The notes under the pieces: generated by a model
What the model saw: the letters and a program-made list of their open reading frames with translations, nothing else
Databases searched by the model: none
Told to the model about the DNA's origin: nothing
Made by a program: the position numbers and the translations under genes
Part shown: positions 1-64,000 of the stretch, piece by piece
How the letters are laid out: the number at the start of each line of letters is the position of its first letter
Numbering within the stretch: the stretch's first letter is position 1
Virus record (IMG/VR): IMGVR_UViG_3300045988_175028
DNA: 64,000 bases
Direction: 5' to 3' (one strand)
Source: a virus

Positions 1-55
1 AACTTACAAATTTTCTCACCGAGATTAAAAATCAAAAACAAAACTTACAAATTTT
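1..55 (+). repeat. 14-nt direct repeat AACTTACAAATTTT (1-14 and 42-55) upstream of the late promoter; possible operator pair
   Basis: Identical 14-mers read directly from the sequence, spaced 41 nt start to start, just upstream of the -35 at 75-80. The window starts inside or at the first copy, so more copies may lie upstream. Confidence 0.4.
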
Positions 56-74
56 TCTATTTCTTGCCGAAAAT

Positions 75-104
75 TTGACTCCGACCTTTCTCCTATGATA
101 TAAT
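75..104 (+). promoter_or_regulatory. sigma-A/sigma-70-type promoter: TTGACT (75-80), 18-nt spacer, TGaTATAAT extended -10 (96-104)
   Basis: Near-consensus hexamers with a TG extension, about 55 nt upstream of the first + strand gene (ATG at 160, RBS AAGGAG). Confidence 0.6.
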
Positions 105-159
105 AAAAATAGAAACTAAGAGCCAACTACATCTTGGCTTATTTATAAGGAGCACACTA

Positions 160-1479
160 ATGAATCGTCTAAATCTCGACTTCTCACTTTCAAGTGATGA
201 AGCTCGCACCGAATACGTCCAAACCTATATCCAAAACTTCGACGCAGAAAAACCCCTTACAAATTCCGAACTCGAAAAAATCGCCGACTATCTCCTATGG
301 GGTAAAAATTCCGAAGGTCTTTCCTCAGATAAAAGCGCAAATATCGAGCTAAAGTCTACCTGGTCATCTCGCCCAATTGTTTCTCTCGACGAACTACGCG
401 AAAGCCCCGCCTTCAACGAAGACTCAATCCGTCCCATAAATGATACCCCAACCAAAACTTCAAAACAAAAATTTTCACGCCAACTCGCGCGCAAAAACGC
501 CCCATCCCATATTTTAGCTTTACTGGAACCTCTCTGGCGCGAAATTGACGAAATCGACTTCCAGCTCTCTACCTACGAAGTTCGAATCGGTAAAAAAGAA
601 AAAGTTCGCGAAGACCTGCGCGCCCAGTTTACTCCTTCCGAACTCCAAAACCTTGAAGAAAAATCAAAACTCCTAAACCCCTATTCCTACCTAAAACAAA
701 AACGCCTCCTAATCGAAAAACGACGCGAGCAATTCACTCTCCAAGACTTCTACCAGACAAAACTCCAACGCTTTATTCCCCACACCTATAACCCACTCGA
801 AACTCCAACCTTCGACGCTGATATCCCTATCTACCCGCTCGGTCTAAAAGGAACCTCAAGTTTAGCGCGAGCCCTTTTTCCCGAAGGACGCCTCCCAATT
901 CCCTCAGACTTAAAAAACGAAAAAGACCAGCGCGCACTCTCAACCCAAATCTGGGCCCCTCGCTCCTCTCGCTACTTTGACTTTGAGGATTTAACCCATC
1001 TTCAAGCTTTGGTGAAAATTTGGGACTCCCTAGAAGAAGGAATTGACTCCTTACCTCTTGAAAGTACATTGCGCGCACTCTTCGAAACCTTTGATTGGTA
1101 TAAGTCTCTAGCTGATTTGACTCCCCTCGAAGAAGACGTTTTTCAACTAAAAAAGGCCCACCAGCAAAATCAACCCATCGTCGAATACATCAATAAAAAG
1201 TATAACAAAACCTATAATTCAAACTACGTCTCCACTATTTTCCACCAAAAAGCTCTCCTAAAAATTTGCGCGGCTGCTACTACTCATCGAGAGCACGCCG
1301 AAAATTTATTTTTCCCCGAAAACTTCAAATGTTGTAAAGATTGTGGAAGGACTTTACTTTTGGATACTAAATATTTTATGAGGAGACAAAGTTCTCGTGA
1401 TGGATATTCTTGTCGGTGTAAGAAATGTGACCGACTATTACGATATAAAAGAGAAGGGCGTGAAGCCCCTTTGGTATAA
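160..1479 (+). CDS. hypothetical protein; possible transcription regulator (sigma region-4-like HTH plus C-terminal zinc ribbon)
   Basis: 439-aa ORF with an RBS. The segment LTPLEEDVFQLKK...IVEYINKKYNKTYNSNYVSTIFHQKALLKI resembles a sigma-70 region 4 HTH. The C-terminus carries CCKDC...CRCKKC. It is the first gene after a strong promoter. The function is inferred from motif resemblance only. Confidence 0.35.
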   Translation: MNRLNLDFSLSSDEARTEYVQTYIQNFDAEKPLTNSELEKIADYLLWGKNSEGLSSDKSANIELKSTWSSRPIVSLDELRESPAFNEDSIRPINDTPTKTSKQKFSRQLARKNAPSHILALLEPLWREIDEIDFQLSTYEVRIGKKEKVREDLRAQFTPSELQNLEEKSKLLNPYSYLKQKRLLIEKRREQFTLQDFYQTKLQRFIPHTYNPLETPTFDADIPIYPLGLKGTSSLARALFPEGRLPIPSDLKNEKDQRALSTQIWAPRSSRYFDFEDLTHLQALVKIWDSLEEGIDSLPLESTLRALFETFDWYKSLADLTPLEEDVFQLKKAHQQNQPIVEYINKKYNKTYNSNYVSTIFHQKALLKICAAATTHREHAENLFFPENFKCCKDCGRTLLLDTKYFMRRQSSRDGYSCRCKKCDRLLRYKREGREAPLV

Positions 1480-1778: not shown

Positions 1779-2768
1779 ATGCCACTACAACCAAATATAC
1801 CAAAACAAAAACGCTCATTTCTTACAAAAGAATGCCCGCGCTGTAAGCAACAACAACTAGAAGAAGATTTCACAAAAACCCACTCAATTTTTTATCCAGA
1901 TGGGGTACTTCCCATTTGCAATGATTGTATTACTCATTATCTTAAACAAAATGGGTTTAGTTGGCGCGCGGTCGACAAAATCTGCCAATGGGCCGACATT
2001 CCTTTTATTGTGAAAGAGTTTGAAAGATTAAGAGACTTGAATTCTGATGATACTGTTTGGGGTGTTTATGCAAAAGTTTTTGCAACAGAAGAATATAAGA
2101 ATTTGGGATGGGATAGTTATAACTCCCAATATCTCGAACTAAAAAAGGTTGGACTTATTGAAGATGAGATTCCATTAGTAAAAGAGAAACATTTTGAGGA
2201 GTTGCGCCGACGCTGGGGAGGCAACTATGACGATGATGAACTTTATTACTTAGAGGACCTCTATAAAGGCTTGCTCCTTTCTCAAAACGTATCTGGCGCA
2301 CTAGCTATTGACCAAGCTCAAAAACTTTGCAAGCTTTCGTTAGAAATAGATAAACGGATTCGTGCGGGCGACAAAGACGTCGACAAATTCCTCTCATCTT
2401 ATGATAAAATTGTAAAGACAGCAGATTTTACTCCTAAATCAGTCAAAAACGCAACTGACTTTGATAGTATTGGAGAGCTGATGTTCTGGCTCGAAAAGCG
2501 CGGGCATCAAAATAAATTTTATGATAATACTACCAGAGATGTTATTGATGAGACTTTGAAAAATATTGAAGCTTGGAACCAGCGTTTGTATATAAATGAA
2601 GGTGGCCTCGGAGATGAGGTGACCGCGCGACTTCAGGCTCTTCAAAATGTTGCTCAAACAGATAATTTTTACGACCTTCAAGCAGACAACTTTGATACAG
2701 ACGTCTATGAGGCCGAAGCCTTCAAAGAGGACGAAAGTGAGGAGTTTGATGCAGGAGGAACTCTCTAA
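1779..2768 (+). CDS. hypothetical protein; positional candidate for the small terminase subunit
   Basis: 329-aa ORF with an AAGGAGG RBS. Its stop overlaps the terL start (TAATG). N-terminal CPRC...CNDC zinc-ribbon-like motif. Assignment is by position only. Confidence 0.3.
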   Translation: MPLQPNIPKQKRSFLTKECPRCKQQQLEEDFTKTHSIFYPDGVLPICNDCITHYLKQNGFSWRAVDKICQWADIPFIVKEFERLRDLNSDDTVWGVYAKVFATEEYKNLGWDSYNSQYLELKKVGLIEDEIPLVKEKHFEELRRRWGGNYDDDELYYLEDLYKGLLLSQNVSGALAIDQAQKLCKLSLEIDKRIRAGDKDVDKFLSSYDKIVKTADFTPKSVKNATDFDSIGELMFWLEKRGHQNKFYDNTTRDVIDETLKNIEAWNQRLYINEGGLGDEVTARLQALQNVAQTDNFYDLQADNFDTDVYEAEAFKEDESEEFDAGGTL

Positions 2769-9038: not shown

Positions 9039-10091
9039 ATGACTATTAAAGAACTACAAGAAATTGCCCTTCATTGCGCTAAGGGTACTGTTCCTGCCAC
9101 CTATGCCAATCAGAATGTAGATATGGATTCTGCTTTCCTAGATGGTCTAAAGGAGCTAGCTGGTTCCGTAAACCAGTTCATGAAGAATCGTTATGATATT
9201 TATGATATCGTAATTAAGACTGCCGACGAGATTATGCCTAAGAAGGTAATTGATGCCATCGGTATGTTCGCTGAGGTTCAGTCTGTTCCTCAAGGTCAGA
9301 AGGCTATCTTTAAGCGTCGTCTAGGTAAGATGCGCGCCAAGAAGTTCCTAACTCAGGTTGGTCTATCTGGTGTATACGAGACCTTCCGTCTAGACAGTGA
9401 TACCTTTGAGCTAGCTGGCCATGCTGTCGGCGGAGGTGCCACCATCGATTTCGAGCGTATGCTAGATGGTGCTGAAACCATGGCTGAGGTTATGCAGGTT
9501 CTAACTGAGGGTCTAACCGATGCTGTATTCTATGAGGTTCATAAGGCTCTTCGCGCTGCCGTAAATGCTTCCGCTCGTCCTGATGCTAATAAGGTAATTT
9601 CTAATACCTTTGAGGCTGATAAGATGGTAAAGGTAATCAACACTGTCCGCGCTTATGGCAATGGTGTTGTAATTTTTGCTCCTCCTGAGTTTGTAGGCGC
9701 CATGGGCCCTGATGCCATTGTAAGTGGTATTGCTAATACTACTAATGGTATTTATCATCCCCAGGATATTGATGCTATTCATAATACTGGTTATATCAAT
9801 ATCTTCCGTGGAACTCCTGTTGTTCAGATTCCTCAGTCCTTTATCGATGAGTCCAACACCAAGACCTGGATTGATCCTCAGCTAGCTTATATTCTACCTA
9901 CTGGTGGAGAGAAGGTAGTAAAGGTTGTTCTAGAAGGCAACACTCAAATTAATGACTTCAAGAATCGTGATAATTCTCTAGAAGTTTATGCTTATAAAAA
10001 GATGGGCTGCGCTATTTTGGCTCATCATAATTGGGGTATTTATCAGAATACGGGGATTACCCAGACTTTTGAGAATCCTTACGGTTTCTAA
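9039..10091 (+). CDS. major capsid protein (candidate)
   Basis: 350 aa with an AAGGAGG RBS, in the expected position after the scaffold. Extreme codon bias and a strong terminator immediately downstream. Confidence 0.6.
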   Translation: MTIKELQEIALHCAKGTVPATYANQNVDMDSAFLDGLKELAGSVNQFMKNRYDIYDIVIKTADEIMPKKVIDAIGMFAEVQSVPQGQKAIFKRRLGKMRAKKFLTQVGLSGVYETFRLDSDTFELAGHAVGGGATIDFERMLDGAETMAEVMQVLTEGLTDAVFYEVHKALRAAVNASARPDANKVISNTFEADKMVKVINTVRAYGNGVVIFAPPEFVGAMGPDAIVSGIANTTNGIYHPQDIDAIHNTGYINIFRGTPVVQIPQSFIDESNTKTWIDPQLAYILPTGGEKVVKVVLEGNTQINDFKNRDNSLEVYAYKKMGCAILAHHNWGIYQNTGITQTFENPYGF

Positions 10092-10642: not shown

Positions 10643-11083
10643 ATGGGAACCCCCTTAGAGAAAGTCTATTCTGCCTTCCTGTCTAAAATGCTCGAAGATG
10701 AGTGGTTGAACTGGACACAAGAAGAAGTAGAAGAAGACTTACTAACTATTTTAGACGGCGCGCTACCTTGGTTTAAATTCCCGCGCAAGTCTCTTGAACA
10801 TGACGAACAATACTTTTTTGAAGAACTGGATAATGAAGAAATCCAAATTATTGCCTGCTATATGAAATGTGAGTGGTTGAATCGAACCATTCTAACTTGG
10901 GAAAATGTAAAGCCTTTATATGAGGAAAGGGATTTTTCTCAGGCTAATCTTATTGGTAAATTTACTGAACTTCTAAGAAAGGAAGAGGCAAAAGTCCATC
11001 GTCTAGAAGGAGTTTACTATCGCGCACCGAAGCGCAAGCCATTTTCATATAGACTACTTGCGGAGCAGTATCAGGATGTCTGA
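10643..11083 (+). CDS. hypothetical head-tail connector region protein (146 aa)
   Basis: Tightly packed ORF between capsid and tail genes. Assignment is by position only. Confidence 0.45.
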   Translation: MGTPLEKVYSAFLSKMLEDEWLNWTQEEVEEDLLTILDGALPWFKFPRKSLEHDEQYFFEELDNEEIQIIACYMKCEWLNRTILTWENVKPLYEERDFSQANLIGKFTELLRKEEAKVHRLEGVYYRAPKRKPFSYRLLAEQYQDV

Positions 11084-14196: not shown

Positions 14197-14976
14197 ATGA
14201 ACGAGTTTTCTTTCAAAGAATTGGAACAGTGTTATCTAAAAGCTACTTATCCAATAGAGATTGGGAATAGAACCATTGAAATAAAAGAAATCCTCGCAAA
14301 ATTCGATAAAATTCAAATCGCTGGCCTTGATGAAATAAAACGATGGGTAAGCGCTAATGGTGGGTTTGACAATCGACCTCATATTTTTTGGGAAACTACG
14401 AAAGAAATTGACCTAAGTTTTTCTCAAGGTGTGTTCTCAAAAGACCAGTTCGCACTTATGACGAATTCTAAACTTTTTGAAATTGAGGAAGACAGGCCAG
14501 TTTTGGTAACTAAAATGGAAACTTTGGAAAGTGATGGAGGAAATAAAATTCACCTGAAAGAAATTCCGGTAGATTTATTTATCTATGAAAAAGAAACTGG
14601 AAAGAAAATTTTACCTTTATCCAAAGAAGGAAAAGTTATAGAAATTAGCGAGCCCTATAAAGAAGTTATGGTATCTTATACTTATAACTACCTAGGAGGT
14701 GCGAAGGTTGTAAAAGTTGGTAATAGACTTTTCAATGGTTTTGTTGAATTAGAAGGAAGAACAAGAGTAAAGGATGATACTACTGGTCAGGTAGTTACGG
14801 GGCTTATAAAAATCCCAAAGCTAAAATTGATGACTGGCCTATCTATAAGGCTGGGCGCGCAAGCTACACCTGTCGTAGCCAATTTCAAAGGAGTTGGCGT
14901 TCCAGTGGGGTCAAGAGGAAATTCATATGTTAGTGAGTTTTACTTTTTGAACAATGATATAGATAGTGATTTCTAA
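14197..14976 (+). CDS. paralog of the tail-tube candidate (second tube-like or tail-terminator-like protein)
   Basis: 259 aa. Shares SAxGGxxN...W...KEI...FS...M and TG...L.IPKxK blocks with the 13352-14137 product. Confidence 0.45.
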   Translation: MNEFSFKELEQCYLKATYPIEIGNRTIEIKEILAKFDKIQIAGLDEIKRWVSANGGFDNRPHIFWETTKEIDLSFSQGVFSKDQFALMTNSKLFEIEEDRPVLVTKMETLESDGGNKIHLKEIPVDLFIYEKETGKKILPLSKEGKVIEISEPYKEVMVSYTYNYLGGAKVVKVGNRLFNGFVELEGRTRVKDDTTGQVVTGLIKIPKLKLMTGLSIRLGAQATPVVANFKGVGVPVGSRGNSYVSEFYFLNNDIDSDF

Positions 14977-39880: not shown

Positions 39881-39883
39881 TTT

Positions 39884-40300: not shown

Positions 40301-40358
40301 TCTATCAGCTCATCCTTTCTTTTTACTATAATAAGTATATCATAAAATTATTCTTTTT

Positions 40359-41812: not shown

Positions 41813-41824
41813 AACTAATTCTCC

Positions 41825-47862: not shown

Positions 47863-48968
47863 CACTCATGGTTTCCCATGCCGATTAAATCGTTGTGGTC
47901 TGGACTATACCATCATCCTTATCTAATAAGGCGTCACTATTATAGTCTCTGAACGTCTTTCTTAAATAATTATACTTTCTATTCATTCCAAAAGGTCTAT
48001 TATAAACAATTGCGATTAACTTTAATATATTATACTGATTTGCAGTTTCAATTCTATACAAACCGCTTTCAGACATTCTAATTGCGATATCATCCATGAA
48101 GAAATTATTTTTTAACACTTCTGTAATCCACATGGCAAAATCTTTAGACATCGTGCATATATAAAATTGCGCGCCGCCATAGGAAGTTTTAGAAACACAA
48201 CCATCACCGTCAATTATTCCTCGAATAATATAAGGTAAAAATTGTTTTTCTTCATCAAGAAGTTTTGGCGTTGGCAGAATAATTGATTTATTTGGAACAA
48301 TACCAAAACGTTCAACTTGTTTTGATATGCCAGGTATTGTAATTAAAACTCTATACCTGGTTTTGTGGATTCCATCATTATAACTTTTATAGTCAGTGCC
48401 AATCGTTTTTGCCACAAAGCTTATCGCGTCTTCGTCTGTCATATCTAATCCTAATCCATCTCTATCACTTAACACATATCCATCTGTTAGTAATAAACCA
48501 ACAAAATAAGCATCAAATGGAGAAGTTAATTTTTCTAAGGAGTAAACATAACCCCTGCGACTGTTTTGTGCCTCTTTTATTATTTCTTCATAATTCTCTG
48601 GATAATATTTTTTTACTTTGTCCGTTATTGATTTTTTGGTTTTATAACCATACTTATTCATTAGTTCTATAACGGAGGTCCCTTGTTTATATTCTTCAAC
48701 CAATTGTAGTTCTTGTTCTTTGGATAATTTTTTATATCCCATTGTATCTCACCTCTAATTATAAGTAACCTTTGAGATGAGAAAGCATATCATTTTAAGA
48801 AATTTCGCTGCGGATTATCCAATCTTTAATAATTTTACCATACCCGCACTTTTTCTGCGCGGCCGCTATATACGTTACCGTTACAGTTTGGTTATTAAAG
48901 CTCTAAGGAACTTCCCGCAATTTAAGTGATTTTTAACTATATGTTACCATATAGGGCTTCAATATTCT
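47863..48968 (-). mobile_element. group I intron (about 1.1 kb) in dnaE carrying a LAGLIDADG homing endonuclease ORF
   Basis: The 5' exon ends GGCUUU (...GYGF). Eight nt into the intron, GAAGCC can pair with it and gives the canonical terminal U-G wobble (P1). AAATTGCGGGAAG (48923-48911) resembles Tetrahymena P4. GATGGTATAGTCC (47914-47902) matches the J8/7-P7 consensus. The intron ends in G (47863). Boundaries are good to about +/-3 nt. Confidence 0.75.
47885..48742 (-). CDS. LAGLIDADG homing endonuclease (intron-encoded)
   Basis: YFVGLLLTDGYV and IIRGIIDGDGCV motifs. Own RBS GAGGTGA. The 3' end of the ORF overlaps the intron P7-like core sequence. Confidence 0.8.
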   Translation of the reverse strand: MGYKKLSKEQELQLVEEYKQGTSVIELMNKYGYKTKKSITDKVKKYYPENYEEIIKEAQNSRRGYVYSLEKLTSPFDAYFVGLLLTDGYVLSDRDGLGLDMTDEDAISFVAKTIGTDYKSYNDGIHKTRYRVLITIPGISKQVERFGIVPNKSIILPTPKLLDEEKQFLPYIIRGIIDGDGCVSKTSYGGAQFYICTMSKDFAMWITEVLKNNFFMDDIAIRMSESGLYRIETANQYNILKLIAIVYNRPFGMNRKYNYLRKTFRDYNSDALLDKDDGIVQTTTI

Positions 48969-51488
48969 AAAGCCATAACCTTTACTCGTACAAACTAACA
49001 CATTCCAAACATACTTACAGAATTTTTCATCCAATCCTTTTTCTTTTATAATCCTGAAATATTCATCTTGTAATTCAAGAAAAGCTTTAGGATTTTTCTT
49101 TGCGATAGATTTTCTTAGCTTATCTGCCCAGGTAAGGCTGAAGCCTCCGCACTCAGGCAACTGAACTAACTCCATAAATTTTTCCTGAGACTCACAGATA
49201 CCATAAGAAATCTTTACTACTGGCTCAAGAATTTTCATTTCTTCTTTGGTAAGACCGTAATTCTCCATTTCTTTATACCACAAAGAAATATCATTTTTGA
49301 AACGAGCAAACTTATTTAGAGGTTGCTCGGCTCCTTTTTCTTGAGCCATCAAACGAATTACAGAATTCAAAACAGCCAAGTCATCTACTGATTGAGGATG
49401 AGTTAGCGCGATGCCACTAATTCCACTTTGCTTTTCCATTTGGAATAAGCTGGTGATTTTATGGTCCCATACCATCTTCCACATATCCGGTGCTGTTCGT
49501 TCTAAATTATAAATACCAATAACGCTTTCGTAGGTTTCTTTTAGAGTATCTTTCTTTTTAACATATCCATAATCAACTAGTAAATCTAGACAGTTATGAA
49601 TTTTATCCAACGCTTCTACTGATAATAAATCATACTTGATAAGTGATACATCCTCACACGCATGAAGGTCAAAAGCCGTAATGATGGTTCCATCTGGCGC
49701 GCGCATGAGTCCGGTTGAATTAGTAAAAGGTTCATCCACAAAGATTACTCCACCAGCATGGATTCCATACCCACAAATTAGTCCTTCAATTTTTTGAGCG
49801 ACTTCCCAAACTTCAGGATAATTCTCTGTCATTTCATATACAAATTGTTTGATTGGCTTCCAATCATTTTCAGTATCACCATACATACATTGAGATAAGG
49901 TTCGTAGCAATCCACGGTCAGAGGGAATCAATGAGGCTAGATAAGAAGCAATATCAACATCCACTCCCAAACCACGACAAGCCGTAAGAATTGCAGATTT
50001 AGACTTTTCTTGACGAAAAGTGGCAACATTTGAAACTCGATTATCTCCATAGACTTTTCGTAAATGATTTAGGACTTCTGCACGCCGGCCACCCTCAATA
50101 TCTACATCTACATCAAGTACTGAAACTCGATCTGGATTCAGAAATCTCCATCTAAAAGTTTTGGTAGTCTCTTGTAGAGGATTGATTTGAGTTATATTCA
50201 AAAGATAAAGTAGAATAAAACCTACTCCTGAACCTCTTCCTGGTCCAACCAACGTACCAGCTTTCCAACATTCCTCAATAATTCTTTGAAGATTTAGATA
50301 ATAGGCTGACCAATGTGCTTTATTTACATTAGAAGAAATCCATGTCATTTCAAGACAAGCATTGACCTCATCCCAAGTCTTTTGATTCCATAATTCTTGA
50401 GGCCCATCTTCTAGTGCCTCAACAATCATGCAAGCCAAAGCTCTATCACCTATATAATCAGACTCCACGAATGTTTTCAGATAAGGAATTCTTTCTATCC
50501 AACAATTTTGAACATAACTAATTTTAGGTTCTTTCCAAGGAAGCTGAGGAATATATAAAGGCTTTAGAAGACTATAATCCTCACACATATCTTTTATTTT
50601 TAGGATATTCCTATATGCTATTTGTAATTGCTCTTGTGAAAAATATCCAAAATAACTTTCGAGTTCTTCGGTATCCATTAGATAAGTCGTGGCATAGAAA
50701 TCATCTACTTCTCTATCACCATTCTGGGCATTTAGATAAGCTTTATGAATTGTTCTGTCTTCTTTCTTGAGATAGTGTGTATCCGTTGTGATAATATAAG
50801 GAATTTCAAACTCATTCGATAACTCAAAAAGTTTTTTATTGACGTAAATTTGGTCTTTATTATTACTGGGTTGCATTTCAAAAAAGAAATTTCCATGGCC
50901 AAATAAATTATCCATTTGGCTTATCCAGTTATAGATTTTTGGCATCAATTCTGGATTATCTTTTGCTTTTAGAAGTTGAGTGGGGAGACACCCTCCAAGG
51001 CAGGCTGTCGAGCCAATTACATGACCAGGTTCTGCGCCAATAATTTCAAATAAGTCATTATAATAAGTCGGAACTCGACGCATTCCTCGCGCCATATAAC
51101 TTCTCAACCAAGCGCGAGTAGAAATTTCACGAATCTGCTTATGACCAATAGCATCTTTGGCTAATAAGATAAAGTGATAGTATTTATCTTGTCCAGCTTT
51201 ATAATTTGAAGCATTGAGTCCATTTCGACAAAGGTAAATTTCATTTCCCTGAATGACTTTAAAGTTAGGATGCTTTTCTTTTATTTTTTTATAATATTTT
51301 TCAATTCTAACAGCTCCAGAGATACAATCGTGGTTAGTAATGGCTACCACTTCATGTCCCAGCTCAATGGCATAATCAATTAGGTCTTCAACTTTTATAA
51401 TACAATCGCGCAGTCGAAGATTTGAGGTCTCATCATGATTATGAATTAACTAATGTAAACTACCAGGATAATCCAGGATAGTTTTCAT
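48969..51488 (-). CDS. dnaE: DNA polymerase III alpha (DnaE-type), exon 1, with an in-frame TAG at codon 13
   Basis: RBS AGAGGTGA plus ATG at 51488, giving MKTILDYPGSLH-TAG-LIHNHDETSNLRLRDC...VAITNHD. PHP motifs HxH and (A)ITNHD lie on either side of the track's GTG start at 51350. Polymerase core blocks follow, up to ...TSKGYGF. Confidence 0.7.
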
Positions 51489-52561: not shown

Positions 52562-54280
52562 TTAGAATGAAAATCTTCCATCTTGAACCTCCATATCTAC
52601 TATAAAGATCTGGGGCAATTCTTGCCCAAGCCAAGTGTTGATATTAGGTCTGCCAACTAAAGTAATATCCATTTCATTTGAAAAACCTTTCAATTCTTCT
52701 ATTAAATCTTTTGCTCTGAACTTAATATAGGTAATTCCATTTTTCTCAATTCGTAAGGTATCTTTATTTTTCCCTATAATTTTTATCTCATTAGGCGAGA
52801 CTACTAAATTAGTAATAGCTATCATCGCTTCAGGATTTTGCTGCCCAAATACCTGCTCATATGGCGCGACATCAAGGATTATGGCTTCTATATCTTTATC
52901 ATTAGCTTTTCTAATAAAATTTACATCATAAATATTTTCTCCAAAATCAATTTGAGAAAGCTCTTTATTTGCAATTTCATGAAGTTTTGAAAGATTTTTG
53001 TCAGAAACGCTAATTCCGAAAGCTTGGTCATGGCCCAACGTATATTCAAAAAGTCCAGTTTTAGATAAAAATTCTTTGAAGGAAGTCAATTCTGTATTAC
53101 TTGGGGCACGGGCGCTACCTCTATCAAAACCTTCAAAATTTCGTCTAGCTAATATAGTAGGTTTATGATATTTTGCCGATAAAACCATAGCCACAAGTCC
53201 ATTTAGCTCAGCGGGAAATTCATCATCATCATCAAGTCTTACAAATAAAATTTGATTTTCCAGCAAATCTTGCTTGAAGATTTTTACTTCTAATTCCTGG
53301 ACTATCTTTTCTTTCATTTTATCTTGATGAACTTTTGCATTTGTGCATTCGCGCGCACTCTCTATACAGAGTCTTTCCATTGTTCCTTTGGCTCCACGTT
53401 TGTGGCACTCTACCATTTCATTTGGTTCAATAAAACTGCGATAAAGTCGATATTTTTCTTCCATTGACCCAACTCGAATCATAGCATTTATAAGAGGAAC
53501 AATATAAAAAGCAACGGTTATAGGATTTATCTTTCCCCCCATTGAATAGTCTTGTTTATCTAATAGAACTCGTAGCATTGTATTCTTTATATTTTGAAAA
53601 CCAGTTTGAACCAAGTATTGATTTTCATATTCAAGCATACTCATCATATCTCCAACTAATGAAACTGCACAAAGGTCAATATAATCATAAGCCCAGTTCC
53701 TCAAAAAATAATCATCTAGGGCTCGGCAAAATTGCCAAACAACCCCTCCACCACAAAGGTTCTTATTTTTATAATTTTTAGAAGTTTGGTTATTTATAAG
53801 TATCATATTGGATGGAATTTCACTTTCAAGTTCTTTTATATGGTGGTCTAAAACAAGGACCGGACAGGTAAAATCCTTTATATATTGTCCATCATTTGTG
53901 GCGCTATCTGGCGCGATAATGAGGCTCCAATCCTTTTTTTCTAATTGCTCCATCATATCAGAAAAACCATGTTGTTTTCCCTCATGAATAAAAAATTCAA
54001 TTTCTTTATCTGGATTCAATCTTTTTATGTATTTATAAATTATAGCAAAAGAACAAATTCCATCGCAATCGCAATCTGCGATAATAGCATAAGGCTTTTT
54101 ATCAAAAATCGTCTTCTCAATAACCCTTATTCCCATTTGGTAATTGTCCAAATCTTCAAAACTTTGTAAGCATTCTTTCGTTGGATGAAGGAAAGCTTGA
54201 ACATCCTGAATACCTCGCGTGCGAAGTAGGTTCTTTCCATAGTCTTCTTTTATCTCTTGATTTACTAGCCGATATTTCAC
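52562..54280 (-). CDS. RecJ-like DHH-family single-strand exonuclease
   Basis: DHH motifs IADCDCDGICS, IAPDSATND and VLVLDHH. 572 aa. Confidence 0.7.
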   Translation of the reverse strand: MKYRLVNQEIKEDYGKNLLRTRGIQDVQAFLHPTKECLQSFEDLDNYQMGIRVIEKTIFDKKPYAIIADCDCDGICSFAIIYKYIKRLNPDKEIEFFIHEGKQHGFSDMMEQLEKKDWSLIIAPDSATNDGQYIKDFTCPVLVLDHHIKELESEIPSNMILINNQTSKNYKNKNLCGGGVVWQFCRALDDYFLRNWAYDYIDLCAVSLVGDMMSMLEYENQYLVQTGFQNIKNTMLRVLLDKQDYSMGGKINPITVAFYIVPLINAMIRVGSMEEKYRLYRSFIEPNEMVECHKRGAKGTMERLCIESARECTNAKVHQDKMKEKIVQELEVKIFKQDLLENQILFVRLDDDDEFPAELNGLVAMVLSAKYHKPTILARRNFEGFDRGSARAPSNTELTSFKEFLSKTGLFEYTLGHDQAFGISVSDKNLSKLHEIANKELSQIDFGENIYDVNFIRKANDKDIEAIILDVAPYEQVFGQQNPEAMIAITNLVVSPNEIKIIGKNKDTLRIEKNGITYIKFRAKDLIEELKGFSNEMDITLVGRPNINTWLGQELPQIFIVDMEVQDGRFSF

Positions 54281-55326
54281 TTCACAATTACTCTCCTTTT
54301 TAATAGCTCTTCAAATTTTTCTTGTCCCTCATCTACTGGAGAGTCCTTCTTTTTTGTAAGGTTTTCTCTATCATAGATAAAAGAAAAATTTGAATAATTT
54401 TTATATTTACTACACATCTTCCACAATTTTTGAAAATAGTCCTCACTTCCAGGCTTTTCTTCATTATCAAAGCAAATAACAATTTCTCTTGGTTGAGCAC
54501 AACGCATCAAAATATCAAGTTGGTACTTATTGAATTGACTTCCACAGGAGGCAACCGCACAGTTAGGAAATGAAAAATTTTCACACATAAGAACGCTTTT
54601 TTCTGCTTCAAAGACATAACAAATTCCATAGCGTTTGATATTTTCCAGATTTTTGTCCAAACCATAGAGGTTTAAACTTAATGGATGTGAATACCATTTA
54701 CCCTCAATTTGAACCGGCATATATTTTCCTACGTTTTCTACCTCCCACTGATTGAGTGCTCGCCCTCTAATTCCAATCAATCCACCTTTAACATTATAAT
54801 GAGGAATTATGATTTTATTTTGACCAATAGAAAAACGAATATTGAATTTATCCATGGCTTTATGAGAAATTCCCTCTTCTTCCCAATCAGCAGGATACTC
54901 TTTTATAAAAACATCCAAGATACCTTTCTCATAAGTTGGAAGTTCTCGTCTTTCTTTTTTTGGCATAAACTCATTTCTTTTTGATTTATAGCTTTCGTTG
55001 ATTTCTGTCTCAGTAAATCTTTTCTCTCCATAACTTTGAACAAATTCTAAAACATCTTCATGCCAGTCATAAGTGATTCCTCTCGTTTCATAATAATGTT
55101 CAATAAAACGAAAGATATTCTGCGCGCCACATTCACTATAACACATAAAAATATGAGTGTTTTTATAATAATAAAGCTTCCAAGATGCTTCATCTAAATT
55201 AGTATTATGACACGCAGTTTTACATAAAAGGAAATCACCCTTGTCTTGCCAAGGAATTTCCAATTTATCCAAAATTTTCTCCACTATTTCATCAGTAAGA
55301 TTTTCAATTATTTCTCTATAGTCCAA
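54277..55326 (-). CDS. DnaG-type DNA primase (zinc finger plus TOPRIM)
   Basis: CHNTN...H...CYSEC zinc-binding region. TOPRIM-like YVFEAEKSV and VICFDNEE. Confidence 0.65.
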   Translation of the reverse strand: MDYREIIENLTDEIVEKILDKLEIPWQDKGDFLLCKTACHNTNLDEASWKLYYYKNTHIFMCYSECGAQNIFRFIEHYYETRGITYDWHEDVLEFVQSYGEKRFTETEINESYKSKRNEFMPKKERRELPTYEKGILDVFIKEYPADWEEEGISHKAMDKFNIRFSIGQNKIIIPHYNVKGGLIGIRGRALNQWEVENVGKYMPVQIEGKWYSHPLSLNLYGLDKNLENIKRYGICYVFEAEKSVLMCENFSFPNCAVASCGSQFNKYQLDILMRCAQPREIVICFDNEEKPGSEDYFQKLWKMCSKYKNYSNFSFIYDRENLTKKKDSPVDEGQEKFEELLKRRVIVK

Positions 55327-55340: not shown

Positions 55341-56885
55341 TTACTTATTTATCTCTTCTAAGAACTTTTGTTCTTTTTCATCCAATTCCCATTCAACCCT
55401 TTGCTGAGTATCATAAAAATCAAGAATAGGATTCATTCTATCATCAGTTATAAATAAATCAGTAAGTCTTAATGTTCCTGTGTTGAAATAACTCCAAATA
55501 CGAACTTGAGTCCAACGACCCGATCGAACCTTGAATACATCAAAGACTCGATTCGGAATTACGCCGCCTATCAAATTTCCATCTTTTTGAAGTATATCTA
55601 TTTCATCTTTTGTAGGTCGCGCGCCGATTACACCATTATCTGCCTTATTTATTGTTGCTCGACCACCAGCTAAACTTGCTTCATTTCGTATTTCTGAATT
55701 ATCATCTGCTTTGGCATTTACCTGAGTTGAAGTAAAAATTGAGACATTTTGTTCAATAGCTAAATCTTTTAGAGCTGTTGCCATCAATGATAAAATTTCA
55801 TCATTTCTAAGATTATGCCCTCGAAATTCATTCAAAACTCCAGGAGAAATAAAAATATAATCAAAAAAGACATAACGCCGTTGGGAAAGAATTACTTCTT
55901 CTCTAACACTTAGTTTTATCTGTTCAATAGAAGGATTTGGTATTCTCATTAGTTTTAGAGTTTTGTAGGTTTTGATTATATGGCGCGCGACCTCAATTCT
56001 TTTTCTTTCGTCATCAGTAAGAGTATTGAACTTAAATTTAGATTCTTCTACTCCACTAAGATATGCCAGAATCATTTTTATTATTTGCTCTGGTTTCTGT
56101 TCTGTCATAATAAAAAGAACAGGCTCGCACGCGCCATTTTTGACCCACTTCCCATCTACTTCACTATAGAAAAATGGAAAAGCCAATTTACACGCGTCAG
56201 CGACAGAAAGTCTTGTTTTACCACATCCACTAGAAAGACTTCGTATTGTAAGAGCCCCAAGCTCTGCACCATTTATAATTGATGAAAAAATCTCTCCATT
56301 GATTGATAGTCCAATACCTTCTTCACTACCAAATGTCTCAATTACATTATCAATTTCGTTCTCCAACTCCCAAGTTTGGACAGTTTCGTTTTGAATATAT
56401 GATTTTTCCACATCTAATAAATTCTTCTTGACTTCTTTTAGTATATCATCTACTGAAAGATTTTTGAAGCGTTGGTTTATATCGAAAGCTTTAGGTTGAG
56501 TTAGGTTTTCACAATAAATATTACTAGTGTCAAGGCCCATTCGTTTGAGGTCTCTTACTAAGTTGAACTTTTTTAGTTCATTATAATAGTAAAGAAAATT
56601 ACCTGGCTCACTCATAAATTCAGCATCTTGAAGGTATTCAATACCGTTATTTTGAGAAAAAACTAACTGCCCACTTGGGGTACTTTCAAGATAACTTGAA
56701 ACATCAACGGGAGTAATATGAGAAGCACCACCTCGATACAAATTATCAATTGCTACAAATAAATAACGAGTAAAAGTTGAGGAGAAATCGGTAGGAGTTA
56801 TTGTATATTTATCTATCTCACTTAGATACTGAGGATGCTTCATTAGACTTCCAATAATTTGGAGTTCTGTATTTCTATCAATCAT
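55341..56885 (-). CDS. DnaB-like replicative helicase
   Basis: Walker A SSGCGKTRLS. RecA-like C-terminal domain and an N-terminal helical domain. Adjacent to the primase gene. Confidence 0.7.
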   Translation of the reverse strand: MIDRNTELQIIGSLMKHPQYLSEIDKYTITPTDFSSTFTRYLFVAIDNLYRGGASHITPVDVSSYLESTPSGQLVFSQNNGIEYLQDAEFMSEPGNFLYYYNELKKFNLVRDLKRMGLDTSNIYCENLTQPKAFDINQRFKNLSVDDILKEVKKNLLDVEKSYIQNETVQTWELENEIDNVIETFGSEEGIGLSINGEIFSSIINGAELGALTIRSLSSGCGKTRLSVADACKLAFPFFYSEVDGKWVKNGACEPVLFIMTEQKPEQIIKMILAYLSGVEESKFKFNTLTDDERKRIEVARHIIKTYKTLKLMRIPNPSIEQIKLSVREEVILSQRRYVFFDYIFISPGVLNEFRGHNLRNDEILSLMATALKDLAIEQNVSIFTSTQVNAKADDNSEIRNEASLAGGRATINKADNGVIGARPTKDEIDILQKDGNLIGGVIPNRVFDVFKVRSGRWTQVRIWSYFNTGTLRLTDLFITDDRMNPILDFYDTQQRVEWELDEKEQKFLEEINK

Positions 56886-59895: not shown

Positions 59896-62238
59896 TTAGA
59901 AATTTTGGATTTTTATTACTTTTGAATTTCCCCCCAATTTTAGAGTCTTGACTCCTTGTGTGCCACGACTTAATATAGGAATTTCCTCAACTTTCACTCG
60001 AATCTGAGTAGTAGAAGATACAACTAGAATATCGCTAGAGTCAATAAGTGGTAAAAAATCACAAAGATTACCCGCTCTTTGAATCTTTACTCCTTTGGTT
60101 GCGCGTCCGGTAATTTTGAATTCGTTTATATCGGTTCGTTTTGAATATCCATCTTCACTTACAGAAAGAATTTCTCTTGTTTCTTTAGGAATGACTCGTC
60201 CAGAAACAACTTTATCTCCCTCATTTAGCTTAATACCTACAACCCCTCGAGCTACTCTACCAATAGGTCTAATATCTTTAGTTTCGATAATAATAAAATT
60301 TCCTTCCTCGGTAAGGATGCCGACTCTTTCATTTTTCAAAATGAGAATAGAAGCAATCAAATCATCATCATCTAACTTTAAAGCCTGAACGCCAGTGTTT
60401 CTTCGTAAATTATACTCAGAAAGCGCGGACTTCTTCAAAATTCCCTTCTTTGTAAGAAAAAGAATGTTTGAGGACTCTGTATCTTTAGAAAGAATCGTAG
60501 CTGATTTTATTTCATCGTCTCCATTGATGGGTAGGAATGAATTTAGATATTGTTTTTCTCCAATATTGAATTCTCCCATCTTCAAATGATAAAAGGCTCC
60601 GCGCTGTGTAAAAAAGAGAACTTCGTCTGTGTTGTTCCCAATTAGAGTATCAACTACAAATTCTCCTTTATCAAGCTTAAACTTTGAGCCTACACCATTT
60701 CTTCGTTGAGAATAAAGTGTAGAGGTTTCGCTAACAAATACAGCTCCTTCATTTGTGAAAGAAAGAGACAGTTGTTTTTGCTCGATTGTTTCTTCATCAT
60801 TTGAAATATTCAAAATTTTTGTTCGGCGTACGTCTCCAAATTTTTCAGCAACTTCGCGTAAACCTTTTTCAATTTCTTTTTTGAGAAGAGTTTCATCACC
60901 TAAAATGGCTTCAATTCTTTCTTTTTCAGTTTCAAGACTGGACCTTTCAGTTTCTAACTTTGTAATATCTAAATGAGTTAAACGAGAAAGCTTTAGGTCA
61001 AGAATAGCCTTAGCCTGAATTTCATCAATACTTAATAGGCGTTGAAGGCCAATTGAAGCATTCTTCGCATCAGCACTCTGTTTGATAATCTTAATAACTT
61101 CGTCAATCATTGAAATAGCTTTCATCAATCCCTCGATAACGTGAAGACGTGCGAGAATTTTTCTGCGGTCGAATTGAAAACCATTTATATATACGCTTTT
61201 TTCATGTTCCAAATGAGCTTGAAGCATTTCCTTCCAAGTAAAAAGTCTCGGATATCTTCCTTGGTCAAGCATTGTGAAATTGATGCTATAATAATATTGA
61301 AGAGAAGTGTTCTTATATAAATATCGCAGGACTTTATCGGGATTTGCCTTTTTAGATAGATAAATTTTGATAAGAGCAGTTTTTCCTGTCAAGTCATTGA
61401 ATCGTTCTATTCCAGGATTCTTCTCGTCTTCAATAATTTGTTCTAACTCTCCACAAATAGTATTAGTATAAACATTATATGGAATTTCAGTTATTACAAA
61501 ACATCTATCTTTTGCATCAAATTCAACCACGCTTCTTAATTTACAGGCAAATCCAGTGCCATTTTTCATGGACTGCTTTACTTCTTCTTCATTATATAAG
61601 ATAGCACCAGTAGCAAAGTCAGGGGCACAATAGATTTCTTCAAAATCACAATCTGGATTATACAAAAGATGAATTAGAGCGGTATTTAGTTCCTTGAGAT
61701 TGTATTGTGGAACGCTTGAAGCCATTCCAATGCCTATTCCTTGACAACCGTTTACGATATTATAATACCCTTTTGTTGGGAGAACGGCAGGAAATTGTTT
61801 GGTATTGTCATAGCTGTCTCGCCATTCAAAGATAGTTTCTTTATCAATATCTTCAAATAAAATATTTGAAAGTTTAGATAGCCGAGATTCGGTATATCTC
61901 ATAGAGGCCCAGTTTCCACTTTCAATCAAAGAACCAGCATTACCTTTTACATCTACTAAAGGATACCGCATAGCAAAAGGCTGGCCTGCGCGCATAATCA
62001 CAGCTGTGCATGAACTATCTCCGTGAATGTAATAATCGGCCATTGCCATACCTACGGCATTGGCTGTTTTTTTATGGGGGTTAGAAGATGTTAGCTTGCG
62101 AGTAAGCATAGAATAGAAAATCTGGCGCGCAGACGGCTTCAATCCATCTCGCACATCAATTAGTGCTCTTGATTGAAGAACGGCGCCGGCATACTGAGTA
62201 AAACTATCTTTTATAATCGGTGTTAGATTGACTTCCAT
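59896..62238 (-). CDS. type IIA topoisomerase subunit A (GyrA/ParC-like)
   Basis: RDGLKPSARQ near the N-terminus, active-site tyrosine block AMRYTESRL, and a long beta-pinwheel-like C-terminal domain. 780 aa. Confidence 0.8.
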   Translation of the reverse strand: MEVNLTPIIKDSFTQYAGAVLQSRALIDVRDGLKPSARQIFYSMLTRKLTSSNPHKKTANAVGMAMADYYIHGDSSCTAVIMRAGQPFAMRYPLVDVKGNAGSLIESGNWASMRYTESRLSKLSNILFEDIDKETIFEWRDSYDNTKQFPAVLPTKGYYNIVNGCQGIGIGMASSVPQYNLKELNTALIHLLYNPDCDFEEIYCAPDFATGAILYNEEEVKQSMKNGTGFACKLRSVVEFDAKDRCFVITEIPYNVYTNTICGELEQIIEDEKNPGIERFNDLTGKTALIKIYLSKKANPDKVLRYLYKNTSLQYYYSINFTMLDQGRYPRLFTWKEMLQAHLEHEKSVYINGFQFDRRKILARLHVIEGLMKAISMIDEVIKIIKQSADAKNASIGLQRLLSIDEIQAKAILDLKLSRLTHLDITKLETERSSLETEKERIEAILGDETLLKKEIEKGLREVAEKFGDVRRTKILNISNDEETIEQKQLSLSFTNEGAVFVSETSTLYSQRRNGVGSKFKLDKGEFVVDTLIGNNTDEVLFFTQRGAFYHLKMGEFNIGEKQYLNSFLPINGDDEIKSATILSKDTESSNILFLTKKGILKKSALSEYNLRRNTGVQALKLDDDDLIASILILKNERVGILTEEGNFIIIETKDIRPIGRVARGVVGIKLNEGDKVVSGRVIPKETREILSVSEDGYSKRTDINEFKITGRATKGVKIQRAGNLCDFLPLIDSSDILVVSSTTQIRVKVEEIPILSRGTQGVKTLKLGGNSKVIKIQNF

Positions 62239-62276
62239 CTTACAGCTCCTTTCTTTTCATTATAATACAATTATAC

Positions 62277-62308
62277 AATAAAAAAGAGAGGAAATCAAAT
62301 TTCCTCTC
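62277..62308 (-). terminator. rho-independent terminator between the two topoisomerase subunit genes
   Basis: GAGAGGAAAT (62286-62295) pairing with ATTTCCTCTC (62299-62308). T-run on the minus strand (plus-strand A-run 62277-62285). A possible TTGATT-17-TATAAT promoter (62298-62270) overlaps it. Confidence 0.55.
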
Positions 62309-62312
62309 CTAA

Positions 62313-64000
62313 TTATTCTCTTATTGTAGAAAAATCAATATTTTCAAAAATAAAGTCTCTTCTTGGTTTTACCTCGTCTCCCATTAGCTCAAGAAGCAAA
62401 TCAATAGCTTCTTTACTATAATGTAAAACCTCTAACTGTTGAAATTCAGGGGTAAACATTGAAGCATGAGCAGTTTCCGCAGGAAGCTCACCCAGTCCTT
62501 TCGCACGAGTAACAGTTCCTTTTATACTTTTTCGAGCCTTGGCAAATTCTTCATCAGAAAAATAATAGGTTTCTTTTCCTTTGTTTTCAACTATATACAG
62601 AGGAGACCGAAGCCAGCATAGCCGGCCCTCTTTGATGAACTCTGGAGCCAGGTATAGTAAAGCTGACATAATCAAGAGACCAATATGCATTCCATCAGAG
62701 TCGGCGTCGCTACAAATTGCGAGTTTGCCATATCTCAGCTTTTTACTATCGTATCGACCAGGGGTAATATTCATCGCGCTAAGAATCAGTTTAATTTCTT
62801 CATTTTGAAAAATCTTCTCTTCAGAATTAGATAGACAATTAATAATTTTCCCCTTTAGAGTAAGAATGCCATACTTGGTATAGTCTCTCGCCTGAGACAT
62901 TCCTCCCATAGCACTGTTACCTTCAACGAGTAAAAGCGTCGAATCCTGTCCCAAAAACTCCGCATCCTTCAACTTATCACTCGCAAAAACTTTTTTCCGT
63001 TGATTCTTTTCAACTTCTTTGCCCGCTTCAAGAACTTGACGGCGCGCTTTTTCGGCCATCATCTCTGCTTTTTTTTCCTTGACTAATAAATCAACAACTT
63101 TATCAAATTCATCTTTATGTTTTTTTACAAAATCTTTTATAGCATCAGTAAAAACTGTTTGGGTATATCCTCTCAGTTCTGGATTTTGGATACGAGATTT
63201 AGTCTGATTTTGATAAATAGGATGGGGATGGCGTATATTAACAATATAAACAAGTCCCTTTCTTATCATATCGGCAGTAAAATCTCCCTTAGATAAAGAA
63301 TTGATAGTTCTTGTAAAAGCAGTTTTTGCACCAGTACTCGGTGTTCCACCATCTATATTTAGCGCGCCATTAGAGAAAATATATTCTGTTTCCCTCCCGC
63401 TTGTCCATTGAGCAAATACTTCAACCTCGACTTCATCATCAAATTCTTTATACCCATAGATAAAAGATTTATGTAGAGGCTTTTCAATATTGTCTTTGGC
63501 AAAATCCTTTAACCCTTGTGAAGAGTAGAATGTATCGCTTTTACCTTTATAAGTAAAAATAAACAAAACTTTTGGAATAAAGTAAGATGTAAGTCGAAGT
63601 TCTTCTCGAATTCGTTCGGGTTCAAAGGTGTTTTCATCTTTTTCAATATTTAATACTTCCTTATTTGGAGTAAATCTAAAAGTTGAGCCAGTAGAACTAA
63701 CTTCTCTAATCTTTTCACTTTTATTAGAACATGGAATGCCGTCTTGAAACTTTAGATGATATTCACTACCCTCTCTTCGACTCCAAACTTCAAATTCACG
63801 GGAACACACGCATACTGCCGATGTCCCGATGCCATGACATCCTCGAACTTTTTTATAATTAGAAGTATCAAATTTACCAGAACTGTGAGCAGAACAAAAA
63901 AGTTCAATCAAAACTTCCTCACAATCCTTATTCGGCCCGCGGGGAACTCCAGCCCCATTGTCAATGCAGGTTAGTGTGTTGCAGTCATCAGACAAAATTA
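62313..64000 (-). CDS. type IIA topoisomerase subunit B (GyrB/ParE-like), N-terminus beyond the window edge
   Basis: TOPRIM motifs LVEGNSAMGG and CSDADSDGMHI, TLKGKIIN, and ATPase/transducer region blocks. The ORF is open to the end of the window. Confidence 0.8.
   Translation of the reverse strand, partial: ILSDDCNTLTCIDNGAGVPRGPNKDCEEVLIELFCSAHSSGKFDTSNYKKVRGCHGIGTSAVCVCSREFEVWSRREGSEYHLKFQDGIPCSNKSEKIREVSSTGSTFRFTPNKEVLNIEKDENTFEPERIREELRLTSYFIPKVLFIFTYKGKSDTFYSSQGLKDFAKDNIEKPLHKSFIYGYKEFDDEVEVEVFAQWTSGRETEYIFSNGALNIDGGTPSTGAKTAFTRTINSLSKGDFTADMIRKGLVYIVNIRHPHPIYQNQTKSRIQNPELRGYTQTVFTDAIKDFVKKHKDEFDKVVDLLVKEKKAEMMAEKARRQVLEAGKEVEKNQRKKVFASDKLKDAEFLGQDSTLLLVEGNSAMGGMSQARDYTKYGILTLKGKIINCLSNSEEKIFQNEEIKLILSAMNITPGRYDSKKLRYGKLAICSDADSDGMHIGLLIMSALLYLAPEFIKEGRLCWLRSPLYIVENKGKETYYFSDEEFAKARKSIKGTVTRAKGLGELPAETAHASMFTPEFQQLEVLHYSKEAIDLLLELMGDEVKPRRDFIFENIDFSTIRE

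Follow-up and report, generated by a model that had tools for sequence, protein, structure and literature searches.

Genome context and gene content

The stretch of DNA analysed here, called the window, is a 64-kb segment (positions 1 to 64,000) of an uncultured tailed phage, IMG/VR record IMGVR_UViG_3300045988_175028, in which the palindromic word GCGCGC is strongly over-represented. The window has 35.6% G+C and is 96% coding. Its rightward arm (1-36.2 kb) carries a sigma-like gene, the large terminase and portal genes, SPbeta-type structural genes (YonB/YonD/YonG/YomU/YomW), and giant tape-measure and tail open reading frames (ORFs). The leftward arm (36.2-64 kb) carries genes for nucleotide metabolism and for replication and recombination, the latter set comprising PolIII-alpha/YorL-like, RecJ-like, Toprim primase, DnaB, Sak4-like (AAA_24) and YorF/YorH proteins and a GyrA/GyrB-type topoisomerase. 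A RuvC-like ORF is encoded at 36235-36963, and the gyrase-type proteins of the clade are 619 aa (GyrB) and 780 aa (GyrA) long.

The exact portal protein of the window occurs in 147 assembly blocks, on contigs of ~118 kb, with human-gut samples among the sources, and the clade is one of ~118-kb SPbeta-related gut phages. No close relatives were found in GenBank, the nearest being Enterocloster phages and SPbeta, at ~38% aa identity in the polymerase. The endolysin of a close relative consists of Amidase_3 and PG_binding_1 domains, which suggests that the host is Gram-positive. RNA families and tRNAs were looked for and none were found.

Over-representation of GCGCGC

An exact count gives 28 overlapping copies of GCGCGC in the window, all of them within ORFs (Table 1). 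The initial annotation had listed 27 start positions, every one of which is correct, and the additional copy, at 49699, is the overlapping one in GCGCGCGC. Markov models of order 0, 1, 2, 3 and 4 predict 2.0, 1.5, 5.2, 15.4 and 29.3 copies, respectively, the order-4 model absorbing the signal because the sub-words GCGCG and CGCGC are themselves in excess. A codon-preserving shuffle had been chosen beforehand as the test that could refute the excess. Shuffling synonymous codons inside genes gave 4.6 ± 2.1 copies (maximum 13) against the 28 observed, so that the excess stands; codon permutation gave 2.3 and genome-wide synonymous resampling 3.5, and 28 copies were reached in 0 of 1000 shuffles under each of the three codon nulls. 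The 18-fold excess first estimated holds relative to base composition, but shrinks to about 6-fold relative to the conservative codon null.

Under the codon null, GCGCGC ranks first among hexamers in over-representation (z = 11.4) and GCGCG/CGCGC first among pentamers (112 observed, 34 expected; z = 12.4), while alternating G/C runs of at least 5 nt number 74 rather than 27. The dipeptide Ala-Arg is spelt GCGCGC in 9 of 56 cases in the window (0.9 expected) and in 67 of 456 across the family (9.4 expected). GCG and CGC, both rare codons, occur mostly together, which makes the codon null conservative. The excess of GCGCGC is real, robust and shared by the whole clade.

The pressure acts on DNA rather than on an amino-acid pair, as had been proposed: it survives the codon-preserving shuffles and is equally strong outside ORFs. 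The 28 copies are divided 9/11/8 among the three codon phases, bearing out the claimed independence of frame. The further argument that the word occurs in genes on both strands is void for a palindrome, since the mRNA reads GCGCGC either way. The non-palindromic pentamer can be used instead, and is found 58 times in sense and 52 times in antisense orientation, with isolated pentamers distributed 14:10 and 10:10 in the two arms. In relatives, sense appears to be preferred 1.7:1, but the codon null already contains this preference. In strictly non-ORF DNA (58 kb of pooled clade sequence with no ORF of at least 35 codons in any frame), there are 91 pentamers where 12.5 are expected (7.3×) and 18 copies of GCGCGC where 1.2 are expected.

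The gaps between sites fit an exponential distribution (coefficient of variation 1.06; Kolmogorov–Smirnov p = 0.73), as found when the suggested check of spacing and position was made, with no periodicity and no link to local composition. Runs of at least 5 nt are in 2-5× excess in every functional module except the tape-measure gene, where density is low. Regular spacing or clustering can be set aside, there being just a mild cluster in ORF 160-1479. This ORF (439 aa, with a weak sigma-factor match and 43% G+C) is the densest spot of the window, with four GCGCGC and seven runs of at least 5 nt in 1.3 kb, and the local codon null is also high there (12 observed, 5 expected, positions 1-2768). 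Overall, the pressure is weak, genome-wide, position-independent and strand-symmetric, and is exerted on DNA, not codons.

Table 1. Positions of GCGCGC and of isolated one-strand pentamers in the window (strand of the palindrome given as '.')
Feature	Position	Strand	Context
GCGCGC	487..492	.	ORF 160-1479, phase 0, Ala-Arg
GCGCGC	618..623	.	ORF 160-1479, phase 2
GCGCGC	930..935	.	ORF 160-1479, phase 2
GCGCGC	1071..1076	.	ORF 160-1479, phase 2
GCGCGC	1964..1969	.	ORF 1779-2768
GCGCGC	9332..9337	.	capsid (YonB-like) gene; GCGTGC/TCGTGC in relatives, synonymous difference
GCGCGC	10758..10763	.	ORF 10643-11083
GCGCGC	14855..14860	.	tail-tube-like ORF 14197-14976
GCGCGC	19340..19345	.	tape-measure ORF; GCACGC in relative L014
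GCGCGC	27381..27386	.	2201-aa ORF
GCGCGC	29823..29828	.	2201-aa ORF
GCGCGC	33730..33735	.	ORF 33619-34002
GCGCGC	35057..35062	.	ORF 34720-35418
GCGCGC	36407..36412	.	RuvC-like ORF 36235-36963
GCGCGC	45160..45165	.	ORF 45067-45261
GCGCGC	46027..46032	.	ORF 45248-46399
GCGCGC	46055..46060	.	ORF 45248-46399
GCGCGC	48169..48174	.	LAGLIDADG ORF 47885-48742
GCGCGCGC (two overlapping GCGCGC)	49697..49704	.	PolIII-alpha-like gene
GCGCGC	53351..53356	.	RecJ-like gene
GCGCGC	55122..55127	.	primase-like gene
GCGCGC	55619..55624	.	DnaB-like gene
GCGCGC	55983..55988	.	DnaB-like gene
GCGCGC	61988..61993	.	GyrA-like gene
GCGCGC	62125..62130	.	GyrA-like gene
GCGCGC	63042..63047	.	GyrB-like gene
GCGCGC	63362..63367	.	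GyrB-like gene
isolated GCGCG	537, 865, 1268, 2498, 2785, 6875, 7163, 7605, 10238, 11467, 23800, 28527	+	one-strand form
isolated GCGCG, continued	28968, 32463, 42817, 47532, 48857, 49406, 51112, 52864, 53911, 58313, 60101, 60423	+	
isolated CGCGC	1610, 1837, 7255, 9552, 9648, 10782, 11021, 11620, 12939, 28915	+	one-strand form
isolated CGCGC, continued	36798, 40217, 40455, 44687, 51088, 51407, 56130, 59144, 60600, 62775	+	

The enriched unit

Maximal alternating G/C runs of up to 4 nt are at or below the null (GCGC 0.94×, CGCG 0.58×), while those of length 5 reach 1.5-2.5×, GCGCGC 6.2×, CGCGCG 2.5× and those of length 7 reach 5-14×. The same analysis in three control phages showed no enrichment. 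Flanking bases were analysed on NCGCGN words in 500 kb of pooled family sequence, where enrichment is seen only if GCGCG is present on at least one strand (GCGCGC 3.5×, GCGCGG 2.9×, GCGCGA 2.4×). A 3′ T abolishes it (GCGCGT 0.96×), and CGCG without such a flanking G or C is neutral or avoided (CCGCGG 1.0×, ACGCGT 0.68×, TCGCGA 0.38×). The pattern is reproducible in both arms over more than 800 kb of clade DNA, with GCGCGC at 5.1-5.9×, the one-sided forms at 2.5-3.6× and the T-flanked forms at 0.6-1.1×. The true unit is GCGCG followed by C, G or A, and GCGCGC is the same word present on both strands. Since the one-sided form is enriched about 3× and the double form 5-6×, a separate reading of each strand fits better than a strict dimer site.

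About two-thirds of the copies had been reported to extend to GGCGCGC or GCGCGCC. In the window this is close to the count (17 of 28), but it does not represent a special extension, as in the pooled family a 5′ G (4.1×) and a 5′ T (4.0×) are equivalent. The only disfavoured neighbour of GCGCGC in that set is a 5′ A, which corresponds to a 3′ T.

Distribution among related phages

Among relatives identified by their capsid protein, the excess is present at every distance. Relative to the order-1 expectation, GCGCGC is enriched 12.6× in loci with a capsid identity of at least 96%, 11.2× at 79-81%, 8.1× at 72-78% and 7.8× at 65-71%. Nearly all GyrA-bearing loci of at least 58% identity are enriched (60 of 61, median 6.8×), and the excess extends to other parts of clade genomes. 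SPbeta and two Enterocloster phages with the same G+C have 0-1 copies per 50 kb, and unrelated phages met in passing have no excess. Among distant cousins, with replication proteins ~30-39% identical, GCGCGC or its core is purged (GCGC 0.17-0.5×), neutral, or enriched 2-3.7×. One clade member, L241 (IMGVR_UViG_3300031992_000198), has kept its core genes and has no GCGC at all (11.4 expected) and three GGCC (13.7 expected). A clade member can therefore do without the word, and restriction pressure can outweigh it; the losses in L241 presumably reflect HhaI- and HaeIII-type restriction pressure in its host. The excess is thus lineage- or host-specific.

An apparently different large phage, L154 (IMGVR_UViG_3300045988_171548, a 174-kb contig), has only two accessory ORFs in common with the clade and also displays a 3× excess of GCGCG together with GATC avoidance; it might share a host with the clade. 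One of the shared genes, DUF2726-like, was considered as a cause of the excess and rejected, as most clade members are without it.

Turnover of sites

Conservation of individual sites in related phages, a check that had been proposed at the outset, was examined, and positions proved not to be conserved. In codon-guided alignments with 20 relatives at 57-66% nt identity, between 0 and 2 of 8 window sites are kept, which does not exceed the background identity of hexamers, and those relatives own up to 26 sites in the aligned region. Among close relatives, retention of the hexamer is likewise near background, and sister lineages differ 1.3-1.7× in density. A finer comparison is given by lineages ~89% identical, between which the word is retained at 0.577 and other G/C-only 5-mers at 0.446 (symmetrised), the latter being the matched control, as such words decay fast in an AT-rich genome. 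Retention from reference to target is higher for the word in 13 of 13 pairs, which have one reference in common and so are not independent. This advantage, taken with the standing 3-6× excess, implies that the word is lost more slowly and gained faster. The sites are neither a set of conserved functional positions nor a mere mutational hotspot; what acts on them is a weak fixation bias over many interchangeable sites, like codon bias or Chi density.

Avoided words

Phage genomes are known to purge short palindromes, and GCGCGC, as had been pointed out, runs opposite to this tendency, here within a genome that otherwise follows it. In the window, GATC is found 27 times where 170 are expected (0.16×) and TTAA 225 times where 505 are expected (0.45×), and CTAG, GTAC, TGCA and ACGT are each at about 0.5×. 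Among the relatives L009-L088, TTAA is avoided in the lineages of the window and of L032 and is not avoided in others (0.9-1.05×), which indicates lineage-specific restriction pressure. Avoidance of GATC and TTAA switches on and off between lineages, unlike the GCGCGC excess.

Two Enterocloster phages, PMBT24 (OQ326496.2; L094 and L181) and CB457P2 (L096), are wholly devoid of GCWGC and GATC, with counts per 50 kb of 0 for GCAGC (36 expected), 0 for GCTGC (35 expected) and 0 for GATC (~128 expected). The loss of GCWGC forces the use of GCGGC and GCCGC, and so creates a spurious 'enriched motif' with z ~13. The proposal that each lineage has its own Chi-like pentamer, which arose from GCSGC at z = 13 in these phages, was dropped as a shadow of this avoidance. 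Over-represented words found in motif scans accordingly need testing against the same artefact.

A Chi-like signal as the favoured reading

A word that is read per strand, sensitive to its 3′ base, free of position, weakly selected, lineage-specific and dispensable fits a one-strand signal for a tracking enzyme. To our knowledge, Chi is the only well-established class of positively selected words of such a kind in phage genomes. The reading we favour, tentatively and by analogy, is that the word may be a Chi-like 'self' signal for a host AddAB/RexAB-type helicase-nuclease, the candidate reader. The word would be read on one strand by a DNA-tracking enzyme arriving from either direction, the host AddAB/RexAB-type enzyme being the likeliest; scattered copies in both orientations would halt degradation of the phage DNA, linear or permuted, whichever end it starts from, and would promote recombination-dependent replication. 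Six bases would suffice for the palindrome to offer both orientations, and its rank as the most enriched form would thereby be accounted for. Of the initial suggestions, a signal for binding or recombination is possible.

There are precedents. In phages LLS and P1, the host Chi is the most frequent octamer, at about one per 1.9 kb, and sites 'come and go' (PMC12315714). Those of Firmicutes are short and rich in GCG, examples being AGCGG, GCGCGTG and GAAGCGG (PMC5959072).

Several points weigh against a Chi-like signal. Recombination genes are encoded by the phage itself (Sak4-like, RecJ-like and RuvC-like), a feature that accompanies a low number of Chi sites in lambdoid phages. GCGCGTG, a known Chi, shows no enrichment (1.2×). 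In Chi-rich cos phages the sites have a strong orientation bias (20 of 23 in LLS; PMC12315714), whereas none is seen here: after the codon null, observed/expected ratios are 3.5-3.6 in sense and 2.5-3.2 in antisense orientation in both arms. This symmetry would be acceptable for Chi only if the ends of the virion DNA are permuted. A prophage search for the host led to bins of metagenome-assembled genomes with inconsistent taxonomy, and homologues of the serine hydroxymethyltransferase (SHMT) were all on phage contigs. No Gam homologue was found in the phage, many ORFs of which are unannotated, and an association of a Gam-type inhibitor with the bias was discarded because no homologue was found outside PMBT24.

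Phage-encoded enzymes and clade-specific systems as possible readers

A rather doubtful alternative is that the word is the preferred site of a phage-encoded DNA enzyme and that its density is selected, with the GyrA/GyrB-type topoisomerase as candidate and the Toprim primase as an alternative reader. The topoisomerase would be two-fold symmetric, cutting with a 4-bp stagger and preferring a GxxC core, and GCGC-core words would take the place of GATC and GTAC, which the phage has to avoid. In S. pneumoniae, 79% of gyrase cleavage sites have GxxC, with GATC as top word and gGATCc as consensus (PMC12630141), and the phage avoids both GATC (0.16×) and GTAC (0.53×). The clade encodes GyrA and GyrB, and bias accompanies the GyrA-bearing loci in all but one case; gyrase and bias are both absent from the complete PMBT24 genome and both present, the bias at 3.2×, in the distant cousin L193. 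Within the clade, however, this association is confounded by common ancestry, and outside it the gyrase-bearing cousins L303-L309, L315 and L347 show no bias or have GCGC purged, so that a gyrase gene is not sufficient; the association of gyrase with the bias, which holds in the clade, fails in these cousins. L241 keeps its gyrase without a single GCGC. The tetramer GCGC fits GxxC but is not enriched alone (0.94×), enrichment requiring GCGCG, and a strict dimer site would not be expected to give a ~3× excess of one-sided forms. In E. coli, gyrase reads a degenerate ~130-bp pattern indirectly (PMC6379681). Matches to GyrA labelled 'phage' in GenBank are bacterial-looking contigs and have no bias.

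It is also rather questionable, though conceivable, that the word is the signal of a previously undescribed clade-specific DNA system, for example loading or cleavage sites for the divergent gyrase-type topoisomerase of the phage, or a 'self-marking' word for phage machinery, selected on number and not position.

Mutation and repair

It is unlikely that directional mutation or repair makes the word with no selected function, whether by very short patch (VSP)-like T:G correction tied to cytosine methylation or by another context bias. The random placement and fast turnover of sites, the 1.3-1.7× differences between close lineages, and the excess in every module and in non-coding DNA all agree with such a drive, and fixation by biased repair is formally indistinguishable from weak selection. 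GCGCGT is moreover the sole unenriched GCGCGN word (0.96× against 2.4-3.5×), as if T were converted to C. In E. coli, VSP repair by Dcm/Vsr leaves CCWGG-related words over-represented and their T-variants depleted. The corresponding signature was sought and rejected here, as no one-step precursor is below the null (GTGCGC 2.0×, GCGTGC 1.2×, GTGC/GCAC 0.95×). T-to-C correction leaves the excess of GCGCGA and GCGCGG (2.4-2.9×) unexplained, and there is no known mechanism that creates a GCGCG word. Pfam and PHROG scans of ~110 kb revealed neither a cytosine-5 methyltransferase nor a Vsr-like gene, ~8 kb and many small ORFs lying outside these scans. Dinucleotide slippage was excluded, since other (XY)3 repeats are not enriched.

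DNA modification

A role of the word as a modification target had been among the initial suggestions. It is very unlikely that a methyltransferase of phage or host, or another base modification, protects the word and that it is tolerated or favoured for this reason. The window has a small amino-methyltransferase (motif IV NPPF) at 38933-39490 and a nucleotide-metabolism block with dUTPase-like, dCMP deaminase, SHMT and ribonucleotide reductase (RNR) genes, and L241 illustrates that GCGC can face restriction pressure in some hosts. The methyltransferase is accessory, however, and unrelated to the bias: near-identical loci with and without it are equally biased (L362 8.1×, L363 7.9×, L343 8.1×), and unrelated phages with homologues have no bias. 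The scans described above found no cytosine methyltransferase. Protection lifts avoidance but would not alone yield a 6-fold excess, and GATC, TTAA and other sites are still avoided.

The amino-methyltransferase (− strand) is 185 aa long, with an FTP motif followed by motif IV DIIISNPPFS, and belongs to PHROG 799 (E = 6.5e-36). It is patchily distributed among near-identical relatives and has homologues of 39-47% identity in unrelated phages of 30-60 kb.

Rejected or disfavoured explanations

A by-product of avoiding other words, with synonymous spellings forced onto GCGCGC, has a precedent in PMBT24, where the absence of GCAGC and GCTGC (0 against 36 and 35 expected) leaves GCGGC/GCCGC 3-4× 'enriched', and the window does avoid many 4-bp palindromes; but no alternative spelling of Ala-Arg or Arg-Ala is eliminated, the others being just diffusely lowered, the excess is equally strong in non-coding DNA, and it persists across lineages whose TTAA avoidance ranges from 0.35× to 1.05×. 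Codon-pair tables and non-coding DNA effectively refute this extremely improbable reading. Selection for Z-DNA-prone (CG)n structure, another initial suggestion, is just as hard to credit: the word does alternate G and C, and runs of 7-8 share the excess, but enrichment reaches a plateau of ~3-4× at runs of 7-9 without growing with length, register matters (CGCGCG 2.5-2.8×, GCGCGC 3.5-6×), the effect disappears next to a T, no excess is seen for other alternating purine-pyrimidine repeats, and six base pairs are too short for stable Z-DNA. A single signal of the packaging type does not fit ~27 randomly spaced sites that turn over. Nick sites of the T5 type were discounted, being on one strand only, whereas the word is palindromic and strand-symmetric. 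The inference of a DNA-level effect in the initial annotation was right, while its specific functional suggestions are unproven or disfavoured.

Other features of the genome

The nucleotide-metabolism block (36974-45070, − strand) encodes a 300-aa dUTPase-like protein, a dCMP deaminase, a full-length SHMT and an RNR, along with a 202-aa protein (PHROG 6721) that has a weak ThyX-like match. The block could boost dTTP supply or provide a modified pyrimidine. A full-length SHMT is unusual in a phage; each of its homologues (66-79% identity) lies on a phage contig belonging to the same superfamily.

Essential genes are split by homing-endonuclease ORFs (2768-5582, 41825-45070 and 46399-51350). The large terminase is divided into parts of 434 and 177 aa by an HNH ORF (4105-4899); it is unsplit (595 aa) in the relatives L002, L004, L006 and L007, and carries a different, DUF723 insertion in L003 and L005. 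LAGLIDADG ORFs interrupt the RNR large subunit (43742-44569) and the PolIII-alpha-like gene (47885-48742), and a free-standing GIY-YIG ORF lies at 51495-52199. Matches of ~80 nt to Staphylococcus and Lactococcus phages at 4035-4121 and 4932-5051 suggest intron ends; Rfam at the gathering threshold found no group I intron.

In the close relative L124 (IMGVR_UViG_3300045988_178758), a 414-aa protein at 17957-19201 has an N-terminal Mtd_N (major tropism determinant) domain, which hints at a target gene, outside the window, of a diversity-generating retroelement; BspA-type leucine-rich repeat and Gp10_C proteins are encoded nearby. Large proteins of L149 (10807-13527, 906 aa) and L401 (5124-7691, 855 aa), the latter with a weak RdRP-family match, are probably single-subunit RNA polymerases of the YonO type, as in SPbeta and PMBT24.

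Significance

No prior description of a GCGCGC excess in phages was found in the searchable literature. A palindromic word that is positively maintained across a clade is the opposite of purging and has rarely been documented. If the Chi-like reading is true, then the word would reveal the Chi sequence of an uncultured lineage of gut Firmicutes and provide a sequence-only handle on the host, to be sought among genomes that have GCGCG(V) in excess and with a replication-strand skew. Large Gram-positive phages with permuted genomes would then join the lambdoid phages in the 'Chi-rich phage' strategy. If phage machinery reads the word instead, or a repair bias makes it, a new sequence-specific activity would be exposed, and if the word belongs to a clade-specific DNA system, it would be the first palindrome described in a phage to be under positive selection genome-wide.

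Comparison with known systems

Restriction-site avoidance resembles the present case in concerning short palindromes and in being lineage-specific and fast-evolving, with the window avoiding GATC, TTAA, CTAG, GTAC, TGCA and ACGT and L241 purged of GCGC, but the sign for GCGCGC is opposite, a 6-fold excess. The localized nick sites of T5-like phages (5′-R/GCGCRGG-3′) are likewise GCGC-containing words repeated in a phage genome, but are few and confined to one strand (PMC3517423), while the clade word is found on both, and nicking both strands of a palindrome would break the DNA.

VSP repair also gives a genome-wide, position-free excess of a palindrome-related word, and the lack of enrichment is unique to the T-ended GCGCGT; it differs in that precursors are not depleted here, that no cognate methyltransferase or Vsr was found in the ~110 kb scanned, and that purine-ended variants are enriched too. 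With the type IIA topoisomerase of S. pneumoniae, the word has in common two-fold symmetry and a core, GCGC, that is one of the four palindromic GxxC words, in a phage that encodes an enzyme of the gyrase type and shuns GATC and GTAC. The specificity known for gyrase, however, is both weak and extended, GCGC alone is unenriched, and gyrase-bearing cousins are unbiased.

From the Chi-rich phages (LLS and P1 of E. coli, MD8 of Pseudomonas), the clade differs in several ways: its word is without orientation bias and favoured in the palindromic double form, the phage has recombination genes of its own, and the streptococcal Chi GCGCGTG is not enriched. The likenesses are that a short GC-rich word is the most over-represented k-mer, that its density is about one per 1-2 kb, that the excess is independent of codon usage, that words one base removed are also frequent, that sites come and go, and that the word is lineage- or host-specific. 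With Firmicute Chi, the clade word has a GCG(CG) core in common.

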